From positions 3,249 through 67,248 of the forward strand of contig JBDRIL010000029.1 of NCBI GenBank assembly GCA_043815885.1: DNA of 64,000 nt, given 5' to 3'. Made by a program: the position numbers and the translations under genes. The DNA is from an archaeon. Lineage in GTDB: Archaea; Iainarchaeota; Iainarchaeia; Iainarchaeales; 1-14-0-10-31-34. This document shows, in pieces, positions 12,434 to 29,306 of this stretch (the first letter of the stretch is position 1; the number at the start of each line of letters is the position of its first letter). Under the pieces are notes generated by a model. It saw only the letters and a list, made by a program, of their open reading frames with translations, had not been told where the DNA came from and ran no database searches.

Positions 12434-14083
12434 TTAGGCTTCTTCTGCAGCTTCTTCCACTGCATCCAGACAATCTTCTTTATAATTTTCATTCCTGATT
12501 TTATAACATGCGTCATCAATTAATGTCTCTACTGCAAAATTATAGTGACAGTAATCAGGGGTATTGTAAGGATAATCAAGAAAAACCCTCTCCCCTAAAT
12601 CGCATACAAGGTAATCCACAAGCTTTATTGCCAGTTCACTGAAGCATTGAATGTATGCTTCTGCTCCAAGCAAATCCCCGCAAAGAGAAGGATCTGAGAG
12701 ATTATAGGCAACGCCAACATAACAGTCAACCTTTGCTTCTGTTTCCCTTATCTTTAAGCAGACACTTGATTCATTGGTGTCTGCGGCTATTTTCACATAA
12801 CAGGCATCCCTCTTATTCACGTCAGCCGTAACTTTTTTGCAGTACTCCCAACTCAGTTCTGCTTCAGCTAAATCAAAGTAACAGTCATCAATCTTTTGCG
12901 GGTTAATTATGAGTTCACATATTTCTTTGCTTGGAGCTTCTTCGCCAAGCATTTCAAAGCATTCCTGCCGTACATTCTTGTCGCTTATTTCTTCGCATAC
13001 ATTAACTTCGAGTAAATTCTTGTCAACATCAAACAAACAATAATTCAATGCATTCAGGTCAGTTATATTCTTGCATATCTCTGTTTCAATTAAATTAACG
13101 GCTATCTGACGGAAGCAGTTGTTTGTCTGGGTTTTATCCATATAAAAAGAACAGATTGATTCTGTTTTAGTGGATGAAAGCAAATCATTCAGGCAATGGT
13201 CTTTCTTGAAGCCATTGGAATCCCTGGAGGTTGAAAGATAATCACATATCTCATAATTTTCCAGGCTTATTGCTACTTCCCAATAACATTGGTCCTTCTT
13301 TAAAGGGCTTGAAATCTGGCTGCACTCCATTACACTCTTCTGCGCTCCGGCAACTGCCTTAAAGCATAAATCCTTTTCACTTGAATCAATTAAATTCCTA
13401 CATATGTCTGCATTGCTTAAATCAAGGGCAATGGTCTTAAAGCATTCATCCCTCATATTTTGATTCCTTAAAGGAGAAACAAGTTTACAGTACTCTGATT
13501 CATTGGTTAGAATTGCAATCTCATTATAGCATTTATCTTTAGATAATTCCTTTATTAAACCGCACACAAATGCATCCTCGTTTTCTATTGCATACTCACC
13601 CAAACACAAATCCTTTCTAACCTGTGAGCCCTCTCCATCACACAGCCCGGCATAAGGAGTCATGTCCTGGTCGATTAAAACATTTCCGTCAACTGAATAC
13701 AATACAATAGCGCTTGCCTCAAGAGAATACTTACTCTCCCTCAAATCCTTTCCAACAGAAGTGACAACATAGTAATAAGTCAAACCCTCAATCAACCCTA
13801 AATCAATGAATTCCTTTTCAGTTAAAGGAGCAGAGGTAAGCTTAAGATAGTCTTTCCCGCTTAAAAGACTCCTGTAGACATTATAACCAATAACGTGTTC
13901 CTCGTTTTCCTTCATCCAGGAAAGCTTTATGGATTTAATCCCTGACTTAGCGACAACACTTGTAGGGGAGGCAATAGGCTGGGGAGTTCCATCTTCTCCA
14001 TCTACTCCATCCTCTTCAATACATCCACTAACCAGGATTAATCCTGTCAGGAAAATCAATAAAATTAAGGTCTTTAGATTCAT
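12434..14083 (-). CDS. secreted / lipid-anchored surface protein with an Fn3-like domain and ~10 tandem Cys-containing repeats
   Basis: N-terminal signal with lipobox-like LVSGC. An Fn3-like region (IKLSWMKENEEHVIGYNVYR). Repeating ~35-aa units, each with two Cys (KDxCYxxIA...C). Confidence 0.6.
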   Translation of the reverse strand: MNLKTLILLIFLTGLILVSGCIEEDGVDGEDGTPQPIASPTSVVAKSGIKSIKLSWMKENEEHVIGYNVYRSLLSGKDYLKLTSAPLTEKEFIDLGLIEGLTYYYVVTSVGKDLRESKYSLEASAIVLYSVDGNVLIDQDMTPYAGLCDGEGSQVRKDLCLGEYAIENEDAFVCGLIKELSKDKCYNEIAILTNESEYCKLVSPLRNQNMRDECFKTIALDLSNADICRNLIDSSEKDLCFKAVAGAQKSVMECSQISSPLKKDQCYWEVAISLENYEICDYLSTSRDSNGFKKDHCLNDLLSSTKTESICSFYMDKTQTNNCFRQIAVNLIETEICKNITDLNALNYCLFDVDKNLLEVNVCEEISDKNVRQECFEMLGEEAPSKEICELIINPQKIDDCYFDLAEAELSWEYCKKVTADVNKRDACYVKIAADTNESSVCLKIRETEAKVDCYVGVAYNLSDPSLCGDLLGAEAYIQCFSELAIKLVDYLVCDLGERVFLDYPYNTPDYCHYNFAVETLIDDACYKIRNENYKEDCLDAVEEAAEEA

Positions 14084-14326
14084 TCCATTAATAAAACTCT
14101 CTTCATATTAATAAATTTAACTCAAAAAAATATTCAATTTAGTTTAATTCGATTATGTAGCTTAACAAAAAACTATTTAAAACGATTACCACAACAATAG
14201 TTGTGGTATTGGGAGTTAAAGGAGGCAAGTCATACTGCTTTTGCGAAAGAATTCTTTTTCAACAGTCTTTAGATTAAAGACTGTGCAGTTCCCTGGCTTG
14301 CCTTCATCATAATTACTATTTCTTTA

Positions 14327-14379
14327 AAACTTTTAGGAAAAGTTTTATCAAAAAAATATTGTATACCTTCGGTATACAA
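14327..14379. repeat. bipartite hairpin element AAAACTTTTnnGAAAAGTTTTATCAAAAAA + nCCTTCGGn hairpin, copy 1
   Basis: Copy 2 is at 29198-29236, in the leader of the L1-P0-P1 operon; 28/30 nt identical in hairpin 1. Confidence 0.6.
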
Positions 14380-14525
14380 TAAAAAAAATTAGTTTTTATT
14401 TCTTTAATTTCCTTACTGCCCCCCTATTGACATCCACTTTTATAAATATTATCCCGTTGTAATAGGAGGGAGGATTCTATAACATTTTAATATCGTTTTC
14501 CCCTACAATAAATACTGCACTGAAA

Positions 14526-14720
14526 GCAGGGATGGCGGAGCGGTTTAACGCACCAGCCTTGAGCTGCCCCTTCTTTTCTTTTTCTAAAAGAAAAGAAGCG
14601 GTAAGTTGCCGGAAGAAAAGAAAAAATTAATTGCCCAAAAAGAAAGAAAGGATGGCTTCTTTAATTGCACAAGCGAGCTGGCGTCCGAAAGGACTCGGGA
14701 GTTCGAATCTCCCTCCCTGC
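14526..14720 (+). tRNA. tRNA-Ser (anticodon UGA), class II, with a 111-nt intron at canonical position 37/38 (14564-14674)
   Basis: Acceptor GCAGGGA/TCCCTGC, 3-bp D-stem GCG/CGC, anticodon stem CCAGC/GCTGG split by the intron, loop CTTGAG|A, long variable arm CGTCCGAAAGGACTC, T-arm GGGAG-TTCGAAT-CTCCC, discriminator G. Confidence 0.8.
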
Positions 14721-14846
14721 GTATCAGAACCTAGCGGTTCCGATACCTCCCTTACGGAAGGATATCTTTTCCTTTTCGCCAGCCTTTCAGAAAAAGGCTG
14801 TCAGATAGCTTCTTTAAAAAAGGCTTTGCATAAAAAAGTGATAGAA

Positions 14847-27218: not shown

Positions 27219-28502
27219 TTATTTCTTCTCCTTTTTTTTGGTTTCTTTCTTTTCTACTGGTTTCTCTTCTTTCTTGGGTTTCTTTTTTGCTTCTTCTTTT
27301 TTTCCAGTCTTTTTTTCTTCCATCTTTGGTTTCTCTTCTTTCTCTTTTTCTTCCTTTGGTTCCTCTTCTTTTGCGCCACTGCTTTTTCTAAAAGCGGTGT
27401 CTTCTTTCTTTGGTTTTTCCTTTGCTTCTTTTTCTTCAACTTTAGGTTTTTCTTTTATTTCTTTTTTCTCCTCGCCTTTCTTCTCTTCTGGCTTCTCCTC
27501 TTTTTTTGGGTCTTCCTCGGGTTTCTTTTCTTCTTTTGCGCCACTGCTTTTTTCAAAAGCGGTGTCTTCCTTTTTCTCTTCTTTAGAGTCTTCTTTCTTT
27601 TCTTCAGCTTTCTCTTCTTTGGCTTCCTTTTTTTCCTCTTTAGATTCTTTTGTTGCTTCGGGTTCCTTCACCATTGATTTCAGTGAATCTGCCTGAAGGT
27701 TTGCCTTTCCGAGAAGATTGCTGATTGTTTCCTTGTTGAAGATTTCTGCATCCAATGCAACACTAAGGGAATCCCTGTATGCCTTGGACAAAAACAGCTT
27801 TATTGTGTCTTCATTAGTGTAATAAATATTTAAAGCCAGATTGAGTGAATTCCTGTAGGCTTGCTGGAAGTCACTGAACAGCTCGTCTATATCAATGTCC
27901 ATTACTTCTGCCTTGAATATCTCTCCCTTTTCATATACTGCAATTACATTTAATCCAACCTTTATTGGCTTAATATTCAGTTTCTGGAGAGTGCCTGAAA
28001 CAACCTTTGAGATTTCTTCTCCTTTCCTGCATACAGTCTTGTCTTCTGAAATAAAGATTGAGCTTCCCTGAATCCTTACCTTTAATCCTGCTCCCTTTAA
28101 GTCACTTAGTGCAGGGCCTGGAGGCAAACCAGTATCTCCTGCAGGAACAAGGATATCATCAGGGGCAATTATTCCGGGTTTTGCTGAAACCCTTCCTTTA
28201 TTCTTTTTAATTAAAGCATAGAGTTCAAATGGATTCATTTGAGTGAAGATTATTGCAACTGAGCCTTTAACTTCTTCAAGCAATTTGCTTTCCTTTAGCT
28301 TTGATTCCTTTAATGCATTTAGTATTACTCTGGTTTTGGAAACCTTTATTACTGCTTTATCATGCAATAACTTCCTTATGTCCTGGAAGAGGTTGGCTGG
28401 AAATCCAGTAATATCAGCTACAGCAATAACCGGATAACTCTCAATTAACTGTTTTAATTCAGTTACTTCCTTTTTCTTCCATTCAGTTGTATGACGGGTC
28501 AT
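27219..28502 (-). CDS. rplP0: ribosomal stalk protein aP0 (uL10) with an expanded K/E-rich C-terminal tail
   Basis: uL10 N-domain (VIAVADITGFPANLFQDIRKLL). The tail of ~150 aa is K/E repeats carrying two copies of EDTAF(E/R)KSSGAKEE and ends KKEKK rather than GLGALFG. Confidence 0.85.
   Translation of the reverse strand: MTRHTTEWKKKEVTELKQLIESYPVIAVADITGFPANLFQDIRKLLHDKAVIKVSKTRVILNALKESKLKESKLLEEVKGSVAIIFTQMNPFELYALIKKNKGRVSAKPGIIAPDDILVPAGDTGLPPGPALSDLKGAGLKVRIQGSSIFISEDKTVCRKGEEISKVVSGTLQKLNIKPIKVGLNVIAVYEKGEIFKAEVMDIDIDELFSDFQQAYRNSLNLALNIYYTNEDTIKLFLSKAYRDSLSVALDAEIFNKETISNLLGKANLQADSLKSMVKEPEATKESKEEKKEAKEEKAEEKKEDSKEEKKEDTAFEKSSGAKEEKKPEEDPKKEEKPEEKKGEEKKEIKEKPKVEEKEAKEKPKKEDTAFRKSSGAKEEEPKEEKEKEEKPKMEEKKTGKKEEAKKKPKKEEKPVEKKETKKKEKK
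27369..27404. repeat. 36-nt hairpin repeat copy in the P0 tail (encodes DTAFRKSSGAK)
   Basis: TTTTGCGCCACTGCTTTTTCTAAAAGCGGTGTCTTC; 35/36 identical to 27534-27570 and 10103-10138. Confidence 0.8.
27534..27570. repeat. 36-nt hairpin repeat copy in the P0 tail (encodes DTAFEKSSGAK)
   Basis: TTTTGCGCCACTGCTTTTTTCAAAAGCGGTGTCTTCC. Confidence 0.8.
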
Positions 28503-29179: not shown

Positions 29180-29306
29180 TCTAAAAAAACCTCCTGCAAA
29201 ACTTTTCCGAAAAGTTTTATCAAAAAACCCTTCGGGATGGCAGTAATAACGGATTAAAATTAAGATTTAATAATAAATAAGTGAAAAAAAGGGTTTAAAA
29301 AGGGTG

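Follow-up and report, generated by a model that had tools for sequence, protein, structure and literature searches.

The window analysed here is the whole 64,000-nucleotide (nt) stretch of an iainarchaeotal genome (assembly GCA_043815885.1, contig JBDRIL010000029.1, positions 3,249 to 67,248), in which a short palindromic hairpin element occurs twice on the minus strand. Copy 1 (14326..14381, delimited by pattern match and folding) lies in a 440-nt divergent spacer between a 549-amino-acid (aa) open reading frame (ORF; 12434-14083, minus strand) and a tRNA-Ser(UGA) gene on the plus strand. The 549-aa ORF has no Pfam match, and its ATG is 243 nt downstream of copy 1, close to the roughly 240 nt given in a preliminary description of the window. 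Copy 2 (29198..29238, minus strand) lies in the leader of the ribosomal protein L1 gene (28499..29179, minus strand; GTG start; Pfam Ribosomal_L1, E = 1.2e-45), the first gene of an L1-P0-P1 operon whose three members are all confirmed by Pfam. As that description also stated, copy 2 is just upstream of the L1 translation start, 3 nt before the Shine–Dalgarno sequence GGAGG and 18 nt before the GTG. It is proposed, with more confidence than doubt, that the two copies are members of a dispersed family of very short palindromic insertion elements, about 36-55 nt long, that fold on themselves and are comparable to repetitive extragenic palindromic (REP) elements and Rickettsia palindromic elements (RPEs), and that copy 2 is near-neutral in the leader.

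The two copies share a 30-nt core, TTTTTTGATAAAACTTTTC-nn-AAAAGTTTT on the minus strand, which is identical at 28 of its 30 positions; 14326-14355 and 29198-29227 are its only two exact occurrences in the window. The plus-strand pattern AAAACTTTTNNGAAAAGTTTTATCAAAAAA likewise matches exactly only at these two places. No further match was found in the window at three mismatches or fewer, relaxed searches with half-sites, tag halves, single arms and palindromes detected no degenerate copies there, and 100 dinucleotide shuffles of the window contained no match to the 30-nt pattern with its 28 specified bases. The repeated occurrence first noticed by a model reader is therefore real, as the exact matches and the empty shuffles show.

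Both copies have the same order on the minus strand: a mini-hairpin with a C-GAA-G loop, a run of seven or six T, the trinucleotide GAT, and a palindrome AAAACTTTT-N3-AAAAGTTTT. In copy 1, the hairpin TATTGTATACC-GAA-GGTATACAATA (14381-14357; TATTGTATACC-TTC-GGTATACAATA at 14357-14381 on the plus strand) is followed by T7 (14356-14350), GAT (14349-14347) and the palindrome AAAACTTTT-CCT-AAAAGTTTT (14346-14326). In copy 2, the hairpin (AT)CCC-GAA-GGG (29236-29228; CCC-TTC-GGG on the plus strand) precedes T6 (29227-29222), GAT (29221-29219) and the palindrome AAAACTTTT-CGG-AAAAGTTTT (29218-29198). The hairpin stems of the two copies are unrelated in sequence. Copy 1 had been placed at 14327-14379; its core starts one base earlier, at 14326, and its hairpin runs to 14381. 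A G+C hairpin with a TTCG loop had also been described, and a hairpin is indeed present in both copies; its loop is a TTC/GAA triloop with a C-G closing pair, which reads CTTCG, and neither copy has a clean C(UUCG)G tetraloop. For copy 1, folding predicts a pair of hairpins that form independently, whichever strand is read (z = -5.0 and -5.6).

Beyond the window, an exact scan of a 596-Gb collection holding one genome per GTDB species, with the 24-nt query GATAAAACTTTTNNNAAAAGTTTT, returned at least 117 loci. At most about 10 would be expected by chance, even if the whole 596 Gb had 65% A+T. Among the matches listed, to which all family counts below refer, 108 are archaeal and 9 bacterial by record title. 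The archaeal records comprise ANME-1 (anaerobic methanotrophic archaea)/Methanophagales (26), Micrarchaeota (about 19), Methanosarcinales including ANME-2 (12), Iainarchaeota/Diapherotrites (11), Nano-, Pace- and Woesearchaeota (6), Syntrophoarchaeum (2), Thermoplasmata (2) and other or unclassified archaea (30). Several copies occur per metagenome-assembled genome (MAG), and two in this 64-kb window; a viral origin was rejected, with only 2 matches in 2.9 million viral contigs. The suggestion that the element might represent a small repeat family is thus borne out far beyond the window. A literature search found no description of this motif, and the family is apparently undescribed.

Four of the nine bacterial records come from a single Oscillospiraceae MAG, Lab288P1bin2 (WRAG01; loci L066, L071, L078 and L108), which contains the 24-nt motif at least four times. 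Each of these copies follows a G+C-rich hairpin (GCGCCC-N3-4-GGGCGC) and AAGAATTTT, and two of them stand directly before a Shine–Dalgarno sequence and ATG. They may reflect either cross-domain spread, convergence or mis-binning.

The architecture of the window copies recurs among the matches listed. A run of at least four T precedes GAT in 113 of 127 copies, and 52 of 127 copies have a GAA-triloop hairpin on the upstream side, against 7 of 127 with one downstream (Fisher p = 8e-12). The upstream hairpin is mostly 5-7 nt before GAT, and its stems vary in sequence and length, as does the 3-nt spacer of the palindrome. The GAT tag accompanies 127 of 128 perfect palindromes, always on one side only, a figure that is inflated because the loci were selected by that tag, so that the few extra copies carry the information. 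A further 54 sister palindromes have outer arms that differ from those of the query yet remain complementary (CAAAC/GTTTG, GAAAC/GTTTC, TAAAC/GTTTA, GCAAC/GTTGC and ACAAC/GTTGT), and 21 of the 54 have the same TTTTGAT/ATCAAAA tag. The palindrome and its tag are under constraint. The forward unit of the family consists of a mini-hairpin of arbitrary stem with a C-GAA-G loop, 4-7 T, GAT, and a 21-nt A/T-rich palindrome AAAACTTTT-N3-AAAAGTTTT.

The setting of copy 2 indicates insertion into a pre-existing RNA hairpin. A metagenome scan with L1 yielded 70 loci, of which 69 are non-identical to the window, the closest of these being 62% identical. The leaders of the L1 relatives have in common a terminal hairpin, the 3′ arm of which continues into the Shine–Dalgarno sequence, for example ACUGCC-AUUU-GGCAG-GAGG, ACCGC-UUCG-GCGG-AAGG and ACCAA-UUCG-UUGG-UAGG. 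When the window leader was aligned with 20 of these relatives, it matched on both sides of the element, and the whole element fell between the hairpin arms. The 5′ arm CUGCC (29239..29243, minus strand) is preceded by a conserved CCGUUAUUA (29252-29244), and the 3′ arm GCAG (29197-29194) runs into the Shine–Dalgarno GGAGG (29194-29190); both arms were placed by alignment and covariation. In the relatives, the loop of this host hairpin measures 3-5 nt.

Covariation supports the host hairpin, with 94.6% of alignment cells paired and compensatory changes in four of five pairs. Its covariation score of 0.53 compares with 0.215 for shuffles, of which none of 500 reached the observed value, and with 0.12 or less for slid controls. 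A second type of L1 leader has other variable hairpins in the same loop, including ANME-type palindromes (L128, L145 and L146). The DPANN-type leader as a whole (29190-29301, minus strand, in the window; L123-L173) consists of a promoter-like ccTTTATAAACCTTTCAC box, hairpin A (GCCU..AGGC), CGUUG and a variable hairpin B, followed by UACCRC-UUCG-GYGG-AAGGUG-ATG or by CCGUU-ACUGC-loop-GCAGGAGG, and its stems covary.

Filled and empty sites can be compared directly in ANME-1 orthologues of an EhaR-like HAD protein. These proteins are 88-97% identical and have zero (P0008 and P0010), one (P0006, P0007, P0009 and L031) or two (L052) units of 12 aa each, placed at one and the same codon. At the DNA level, the empty site reads ...CTTTCTTTAAAAAAAAAAGCTTTACC... 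and the filled site ...CTTTCTTTAAAACTTTTAAGAAAAGTTTTATCAAAAACGCTTCGCGAAAAGAAAGCTTTACC... (also given as ...CTTTCTTTAAAACTTTTAAGAAAAGTTTTATCAAAAACGCTTCGCGAAAAGAAAGC...), corresponding to a precise, in-frame insertion of 36 nt in an A/T run, without a clear target duplication. In the doubly filled allele, a sister unit is nested in the A-run of the first. Since copy 2 fills the loop of a host hairpin and the EhaR-like orthologues have zero, one or two units, the element is a discrete, recurrent insertion with presence/absence polymorphism in the family.

Other copies occupy a wide range of contexts, intergenic DNA among them. In the canonical 37/38 introns of seven tRNA genes identified by ARAGORN (Phe, Lys, Gly, Ala, Thr and two Asn), the motif forms the hairpin directly after the 5′ splice site, and the tRNA-sense strand always reads AAAAC...ATC. 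Four further intron-bearing tRNAs were recognised by eye (L008, L051, L072 and L112), some with two such introns, and the near-identical tRNA-Asn genes of L095 and L100 have introns that differ by one extra sister unit. Copies also abut tRNA 5′ ends (L002 and L047), follow tRNA 3′ ends (L026 and L046) or, by eye, the 3′ end of a 16S rRNA (L091), and are tandemly duplicated in L007, L016 and L088.

Among the matches listed, 25 copies lie within long ORFs, and 22 of the 25 are in the orientation that encodes K-T-F-x-K-S-F-I-K. Besides the EhaR-like HAD protein, in-frame copies are found in an IS200/IS605 TnpA, and in a kinase-like ORF (named by eye) and an S-layer-like protein whose insert sizes were not compared with an empty site. 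In type-IV-pilin-like precursors of Micrarchaeota (L062, L065 and L081), the unit lies in the basic leader peptide before ...QSAMEYLMTYGW. Pilin-like precursors of the form ...KAQSAMEYLMTYGWAILI... (L029, L062, L065 and L081) sometimes have a GGCTTC-type hairpin repeat in the leader peptide in addition to the unit. In L006, the TnpA ORF can be aligned with TnpA proteins of known structure as far as the unit, which appears as a 13-aa insert relative to homologues in the PDB, and a second 13-residue insert in the same ORF derives from a sister palindrome. More broadly, ANME-1 IS200/IS605 TnpA genes (L006, L048, L050, L098 and L109) have up to three in-frame inserts of 13-15 residues, which come from this palindromic unit and its sisters; in L098 and L109, the unit lies exactly at internal deletion junctions of the gene.

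The orientation of copies is biased where they are transcribed. The forward orientation accounts for 3 of 25 copies in ORFs (p = 0.002, even allowing for one closed reading frame) and for 0 of 7 in introns (p = 0.016); between co-directional genes, 16 copies are forward and 29 reverse. This bias in transcribed contexts fits selection on tolerated insertions, and may arise from avoidance of a T5-7 run on the sense strand, or of the peptide that the other strand would encode, which is more hydrophobic.

The element is inferred to be selfish or near-neutral DNA, which would persist where a self-contained hairpin is harmless, namely in RNA loops, introns, protein surface loops and spacers. Two routes of spread may be considered. 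An enzyme acting in trans, with single-stranded hairpins as its recognition target, could mobilise the element. In ISDra2, the pentanucleotide TTGAT serves for cleavage and as target, and the one-sided T-run+GAT tag of the element, beside a covarying palindrome, recalls the GTAG-tagged REP elements that RAYT transposases move. Alternatively, it could spread by microhomology-mediated copying into A/T runs, which would also fit the insertion into A/T runs, the units at TnpA deletion junctions in L098 and L109, and the local duplications. A link to the ends of IS200/IS605 elements was considered and dropped, as the flanks of the TnpA genes show no related hairpins.

Several observations weigh against a mobile element. 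No cognate transposase or partner enzyme was found in the window or in the flanks of the ANME-1 TnpA genes: no transposase is among the top 25 Pfam families of the window, and tblastn detected no TnpA-like (Y1) sequence in its 64 kb. Neither window copy shows presence/absence polymorphism, since three further assemblies from this population have an identical copy 1 and all L1-locus records carry copy 2. The minimum free energy folds of the two copies differ. A consistent target-site duplication is absent, and for most copies flank repeats stay within the null distribution. Four copies end exactly at a gene or tRNA start, the TATA-like TTTTGATA is suitably spaced from the end of the element, and some copies may act as promoters. 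Lastly, 21 exact bases kept across phyla, a GAA loop retained on differing stems, and a fixed T-run and GAT tag denote constraint, which could stem from a host function instead of recognition by a mobilising enzyme.

Flank repeats of variable length (9-28 nt) do occur at a few copies. Copy 1 plus 15 nt is bracketed by an 11-nt direct repeat, TTAAAGAAATA (14317..14327 and 14397..14407, minus strand), which is the longest flank repeat at this site in the flank-repeat test and is rare in the null distribution; longer ones are found at L016, L088, L111 and L078.

A bolder extension of this proposal is offered tentatively and is, on balance, doubted: that T-run+GAT palindromes constitute a new class of archaeal mobile mini-element of about 36 nt, one of the smallest known, which crosses phyla by a mechanism undescribed for archaea. 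Such a class would extend across DPANN, ANME-1/2 and Syntrophoarchaeum, and perhaps some Firmicutes, and would insert precisely into A/T runs and hairpin loops. It might be moved by an HUH/Y1-type enzyme acting on tagged single-stranded hairpins or, given the strong association with tRNA introns, at the RNA level by the tRNA splicing and ligation machinery. If so, tRNA introns and short in-frame insertions in proteins would, in these lineages, come in large part from such elements.

REP elements are palindromes of 20-40 nt with a GTAG tag, mobilised by RAYT transposases (PMC3733652). The element resembles them in its similar size, in arms that covary between sub-families, in a short one-sided tag, in the presence of multiple sub-families per genome and of tandem or nested units, and in an occasional in-frame location. 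It differs in its tag, which is T4-7+GAT and not GTAG or CGTC, in stems that are A/T-rich and not G+C-rich, in the extra GAA-triloop mini-hairpin, in its archaeal hosts and in its frequency in tRNA introns. No RAYT was found in the 64-kb window, and ANME-1 loci hold IS200/IS605 TnpA genes whose flanks have no obvious relation to the element. REPs are species-specific as far as is known, whereas the same 24-mer is common to several phyla.

RPEs (mentioned in PMC3733652) are selfish palindromic DNA that inserts in frame in protein genes and in RNA genes. The present element is likewise palindromic, occurs in frame in protein genes and in RNA genes, and is tolerated as a self-contained module. 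In-frame inserts with orthologues that lack them, the criterion for RPEs, are found in this family in the EhaR-like HAD protein and TnpA, and not at the window copies. RPEs are about 100-150 bp long and confined to Rickettsia, whereas this element measures 36-55 nt and occurs in many archaeal phyla. To our knowledge, archaea, and especially the DPANN and ANME lineages, are not known for repeats of the REP or RPE type.

Miniature inverted-repeat transposable elements, or MITEs, are also non-autonomous, short and dispersed, can alter the expression of neighbouring genes and form nested insertions; some, such as Correia elements, carry promoter or terminator activity. Unlike MITEs, the element is several-fold shorter and has neither delimiting terminal inverted repeats nor a regular target-site duplication. 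A likeness to archaeal bulge-helix-bulge (BHB) tRNA introns, for which transposition has been proposed in Thermoproteales, lies in the palindrome forming the intron hairpin in at least seven tRNA genes and in related introns occurring in different tRNAs. Unlike BHB introns, the window copies are not in tRNA genes, and copy 2 is transcribed in the direction opposite to that of the intron copies. A BHB intron reading of copy 2 was rejected, as no bulge-helix-bulge could be drawn in 29190-29252 on inspection, without a dedicated BHB search.

Among the alternatives, the one that survives best, though considered unlikely, is that the element is a portable transcription signal used by the host. The GAA hairpin and T5-7 run would terminate transcription, and a CGAAG resembling a transcription factor B recognition element (BRE), together with the TATA-like TTTTGATA, would re-initiate it about 20 nt downstream. 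Copy 2 would then drive or attenuate L1-P0-P1, and copy 1 would drive either the 549-aa gene or a minus-strand RNA of about 150 nt (14325-14165), which the terminator-like hairpin at 14208-14187 would close into a discrete unit. In favour of such a signal, TTTTGATA departs from the local TATA consensus, TTTTTATA/TTTATAAA, by a single base, and the element ends 20 nt after it, while local genes have the 3′ end of the TATA box about 23-25 nt before leaderless ATGs. Copies abut not only the tRNA 5′ ends of L002 and L047, but also the ATGs of L3 and S15 ORFs identified by eye (L069 and L092). The avoidance of the forward orientation in genes and introns is as expected for a terminating T-run, and a pattern scan scored the copy 1 hairpin with its T7 as terminator-like on the minus strand; however, copy 2 was not so scored, and neither window copy directly follows the end of a co-directional gene.

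The wider distribution argues against a signal. Gene starts within 200 nt downstream are not enriched for the forward orientation (46 forward, 60 reverse), there is no preference for gene 3′ ends or convergent spacers, and copies in introns or in frame in proteins cannot be useful promoters. Given no general association with gene starts or ends, promoter or terminator activity would be at most a side-effect in some copies. At the L1 locus, a probable TATA box, TTTTTAAA (29294..29301, minus strand; context cccTTTTTAAACCCTTTTTTTCAC), was assigned by alignment by eye. It is equivalent in position to the ccTTTATAAACCTTTCAC of relatives, which lies about 80 nt upstream, and matches the TATA consensus of this genome, so that the conserved L1 promoter would lie upstream of the element and copy 2 within the 5′ untranslated region (UTR). 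The inserted T6 after the hairpin could cause transcription attenuation. The leaders of the window and of L132, however, have a native T7 between the Shine–Dalgarno sequence and the start codon, which indicates that T-runs are tolerated in this 5′ UTR.

It is judged very improbable that a dimeric DNA-binding regulator uses the palindrome as its operator, in a small regulon that includes L1-P0-P1 and whichever gene or RNA follows copy 1. A perfect 9+3+9 palindrome with a variable spacer, beside gene starts in both window copies, would suit such a protein. Yet compensatory sister palindromes are found together within genomes and sometimes next to each other (L005, L040, L079 and L100), which implies that the constraint acts on hairpin or palindrome symmetry and not on the half-site of one protein. 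The one-sided conserved tag, the copies in introns and in frame in proteins, and the sporadic distribution among related genomes also speak against an operator.

The preliminary description favoured a regulatory RNA, either an L1-binding mimic of rRNA or a riboregulator common to L1 and the surface-protein gene downstream of copy 1, and this now appears exceedingly improbable. L1 binds a motif common to 23S rRNA and its own mRNA, and archaeal L1 represses its own mRNA thereby (PMC2175363). Copy 2 is suitably placed, on the coding strand of the 5′ UTR directly before the Shine–Dalgarno sequence, much as the Methanococcus autoregulatory site, a mimic of 23S helices 76-78, is found close to the translation start on the mRNA of the L1 operon (PMC2175363). 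Unlike that site, the element has no motif in common with it and is not conserved with L1: none of the 69 other L1 loci (321 kb) contains it at three mismatches or fewer. The motif recurs instead in tRNA introns, coding sequences and unrelated loci, and the strand transcribed in introns and coding copies is opposite to that in the L1 leader. The element, an A/U palindrome with a GAA hairpin, has no similarity to the E. coli L1-stalk strands, AGGUGGGAGGCU ... GAGCCGACCUUGAAAUACCACCC, in a comparison made by eye against bacterial 23S rRNA only, and lacks the stalk motif helix-GGGAGGC ... GCCGA..AAAUACC-helix. On these sequence comparisons, the interpretation of the element as an L1 operator is rejected. 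Rfam has no family for the element, for the L1 leader or for the structured region beside copy 1, the window having been searched at the gathering threshold and both window sites, plus a relative, also at E <= 10. The collected loci contained no archaeal 23S rRNA for this comparison, a candidate in L111 proving to be a false positive.

The idea of an L1 operator in this leader is nonetheless probably right when transferred to the host hairpin. DPANN L1 leaders read GGCCGUUG-(variable hairpin)-AUACCAC-UUCG-GUGGAAGGUG, and the window leader reads CCGUUAUUAC-UGCC...GCA-GGAGG, with CCGUU and AUAC flanks that resemble the E. coli stalk by eye. The covarying hairpin ACUGC(C)...(G)GCAG-GAGG and these flanks are thus probably the better candidate for the L1 operator; as an autoregulatory site, the hairpin would probably occlude the Shine–Dalgarno sequence, and it may stand for 23S helix 76. 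The apical loop would then be the point at which the rest of the rRNA continues, which places the insert far from the protein-binding junction. The predicted fold of the leader retains the host stem CUGC/GCAG, with the insert forming a 12-bp hairpin of its own, CCGAAGGGUUUU/AAAACUUUUCGG. With the host stem, flanks and Shine–Dalgarno sequence intact, L1 feedback is expected to survive the insertion, and in this model its site should still work; copy 2 is probably structurally insulated and near-neutral in the L1 leader.

The last alternative, a chance coincidence of A/T-rich low-complexity sequence, would draw on the 36-37% G+C of the window and on 9-mer arms that alone are not over-represented, but the empty shuffles and window searches, the at least 117 loci against about 10 or fewer expected, and the conserved flanking architecture leave it next to no probability, and the element is not low-complexity noise.

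For the window, this result does away with a tempting misannotation, since the L1 operator is not the repeated hairpin but is likely to be the hairpin that it interrupts. Archaeal phyla share the element with hardly a letter changed; it accounts for a large part of many tRNA introns and lengthens proteins in frame by 12-13 residues. If mobile, it would help to trace horizontal exchange between hosts and episymbionts and be a source of intron and protein-loop variation, and it would call for caution in the prediction of RNA motifs and promoters in these genomes.

Further features lie around copy 1. Between it and the 549-aa ORF is a structured segment of about 150 nt (14160-14325; z = -7.4 on the plus strand and -6.4 on the minus strand), which folds as a three-way junction closed by AGGCAAG/CUUGCCU; on the plus strand, two G-U pairs lengthen this closing stem to 11 pairs. 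On the minus strand, the segment ends in the terminator-like hairpin mentioned above. Rfam yielded no match to it, and 1.1 Mb of collected loci contained no homologue; it may be a novel small RNA or a long structured leader. Copy 1 may be part of a leader, lie upstream of a small RNA gene, or be plain spacer DNA.

The tRNA-Ser(UGA) gene (14526-14721, plus strand) has an intron of about 112 nt at 37/38 (about 14564-14675) and escaped both ARAGORN with default settings and Rfam at its gathering threshold. Its intron contains a palindrome of similar style, CTTCTTTTCTTTT-TCT-AAAAGAAAAGAAG (14570-14598). About 60-100 nt upstream of the gene, at 14420-14480, an imperfect inverted repeat, CCCCCTATTGACA ... 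TGTAATAGGAGGG, surrounds a TATA-like TTTTATAAATATTA. Just 3′ of the gene, a 54-nt indel (about 14722-14745) distinguishes strains whose assemblies are otherwise identical: the window has the hairpin GAACC-TAGC-GGTTC, and L194 and L195 (JGI Ga0180007_10022684; GCA_018818325.1 JAHISD010000053.1) have a longer, unrelated palindrome, GACAAATCAGTT ... AACTGATTTGTC.

In the operon that follows copy 2, the P0 (L10) gene (27219-28502, minus strand) encodes 427 aa, an unusual length for an archaeal P0; its long C-terminal extension is repetitive, rich in Lys and Glu, and contains the direct-repeat families D1, D3, D4 and D8 (about 27220-27640). Elsewhere in the window, two ORFs have intein splicing and LAGLIDADG domains in the Pfam summary, and the remainder are ordinary housekeeping genes.

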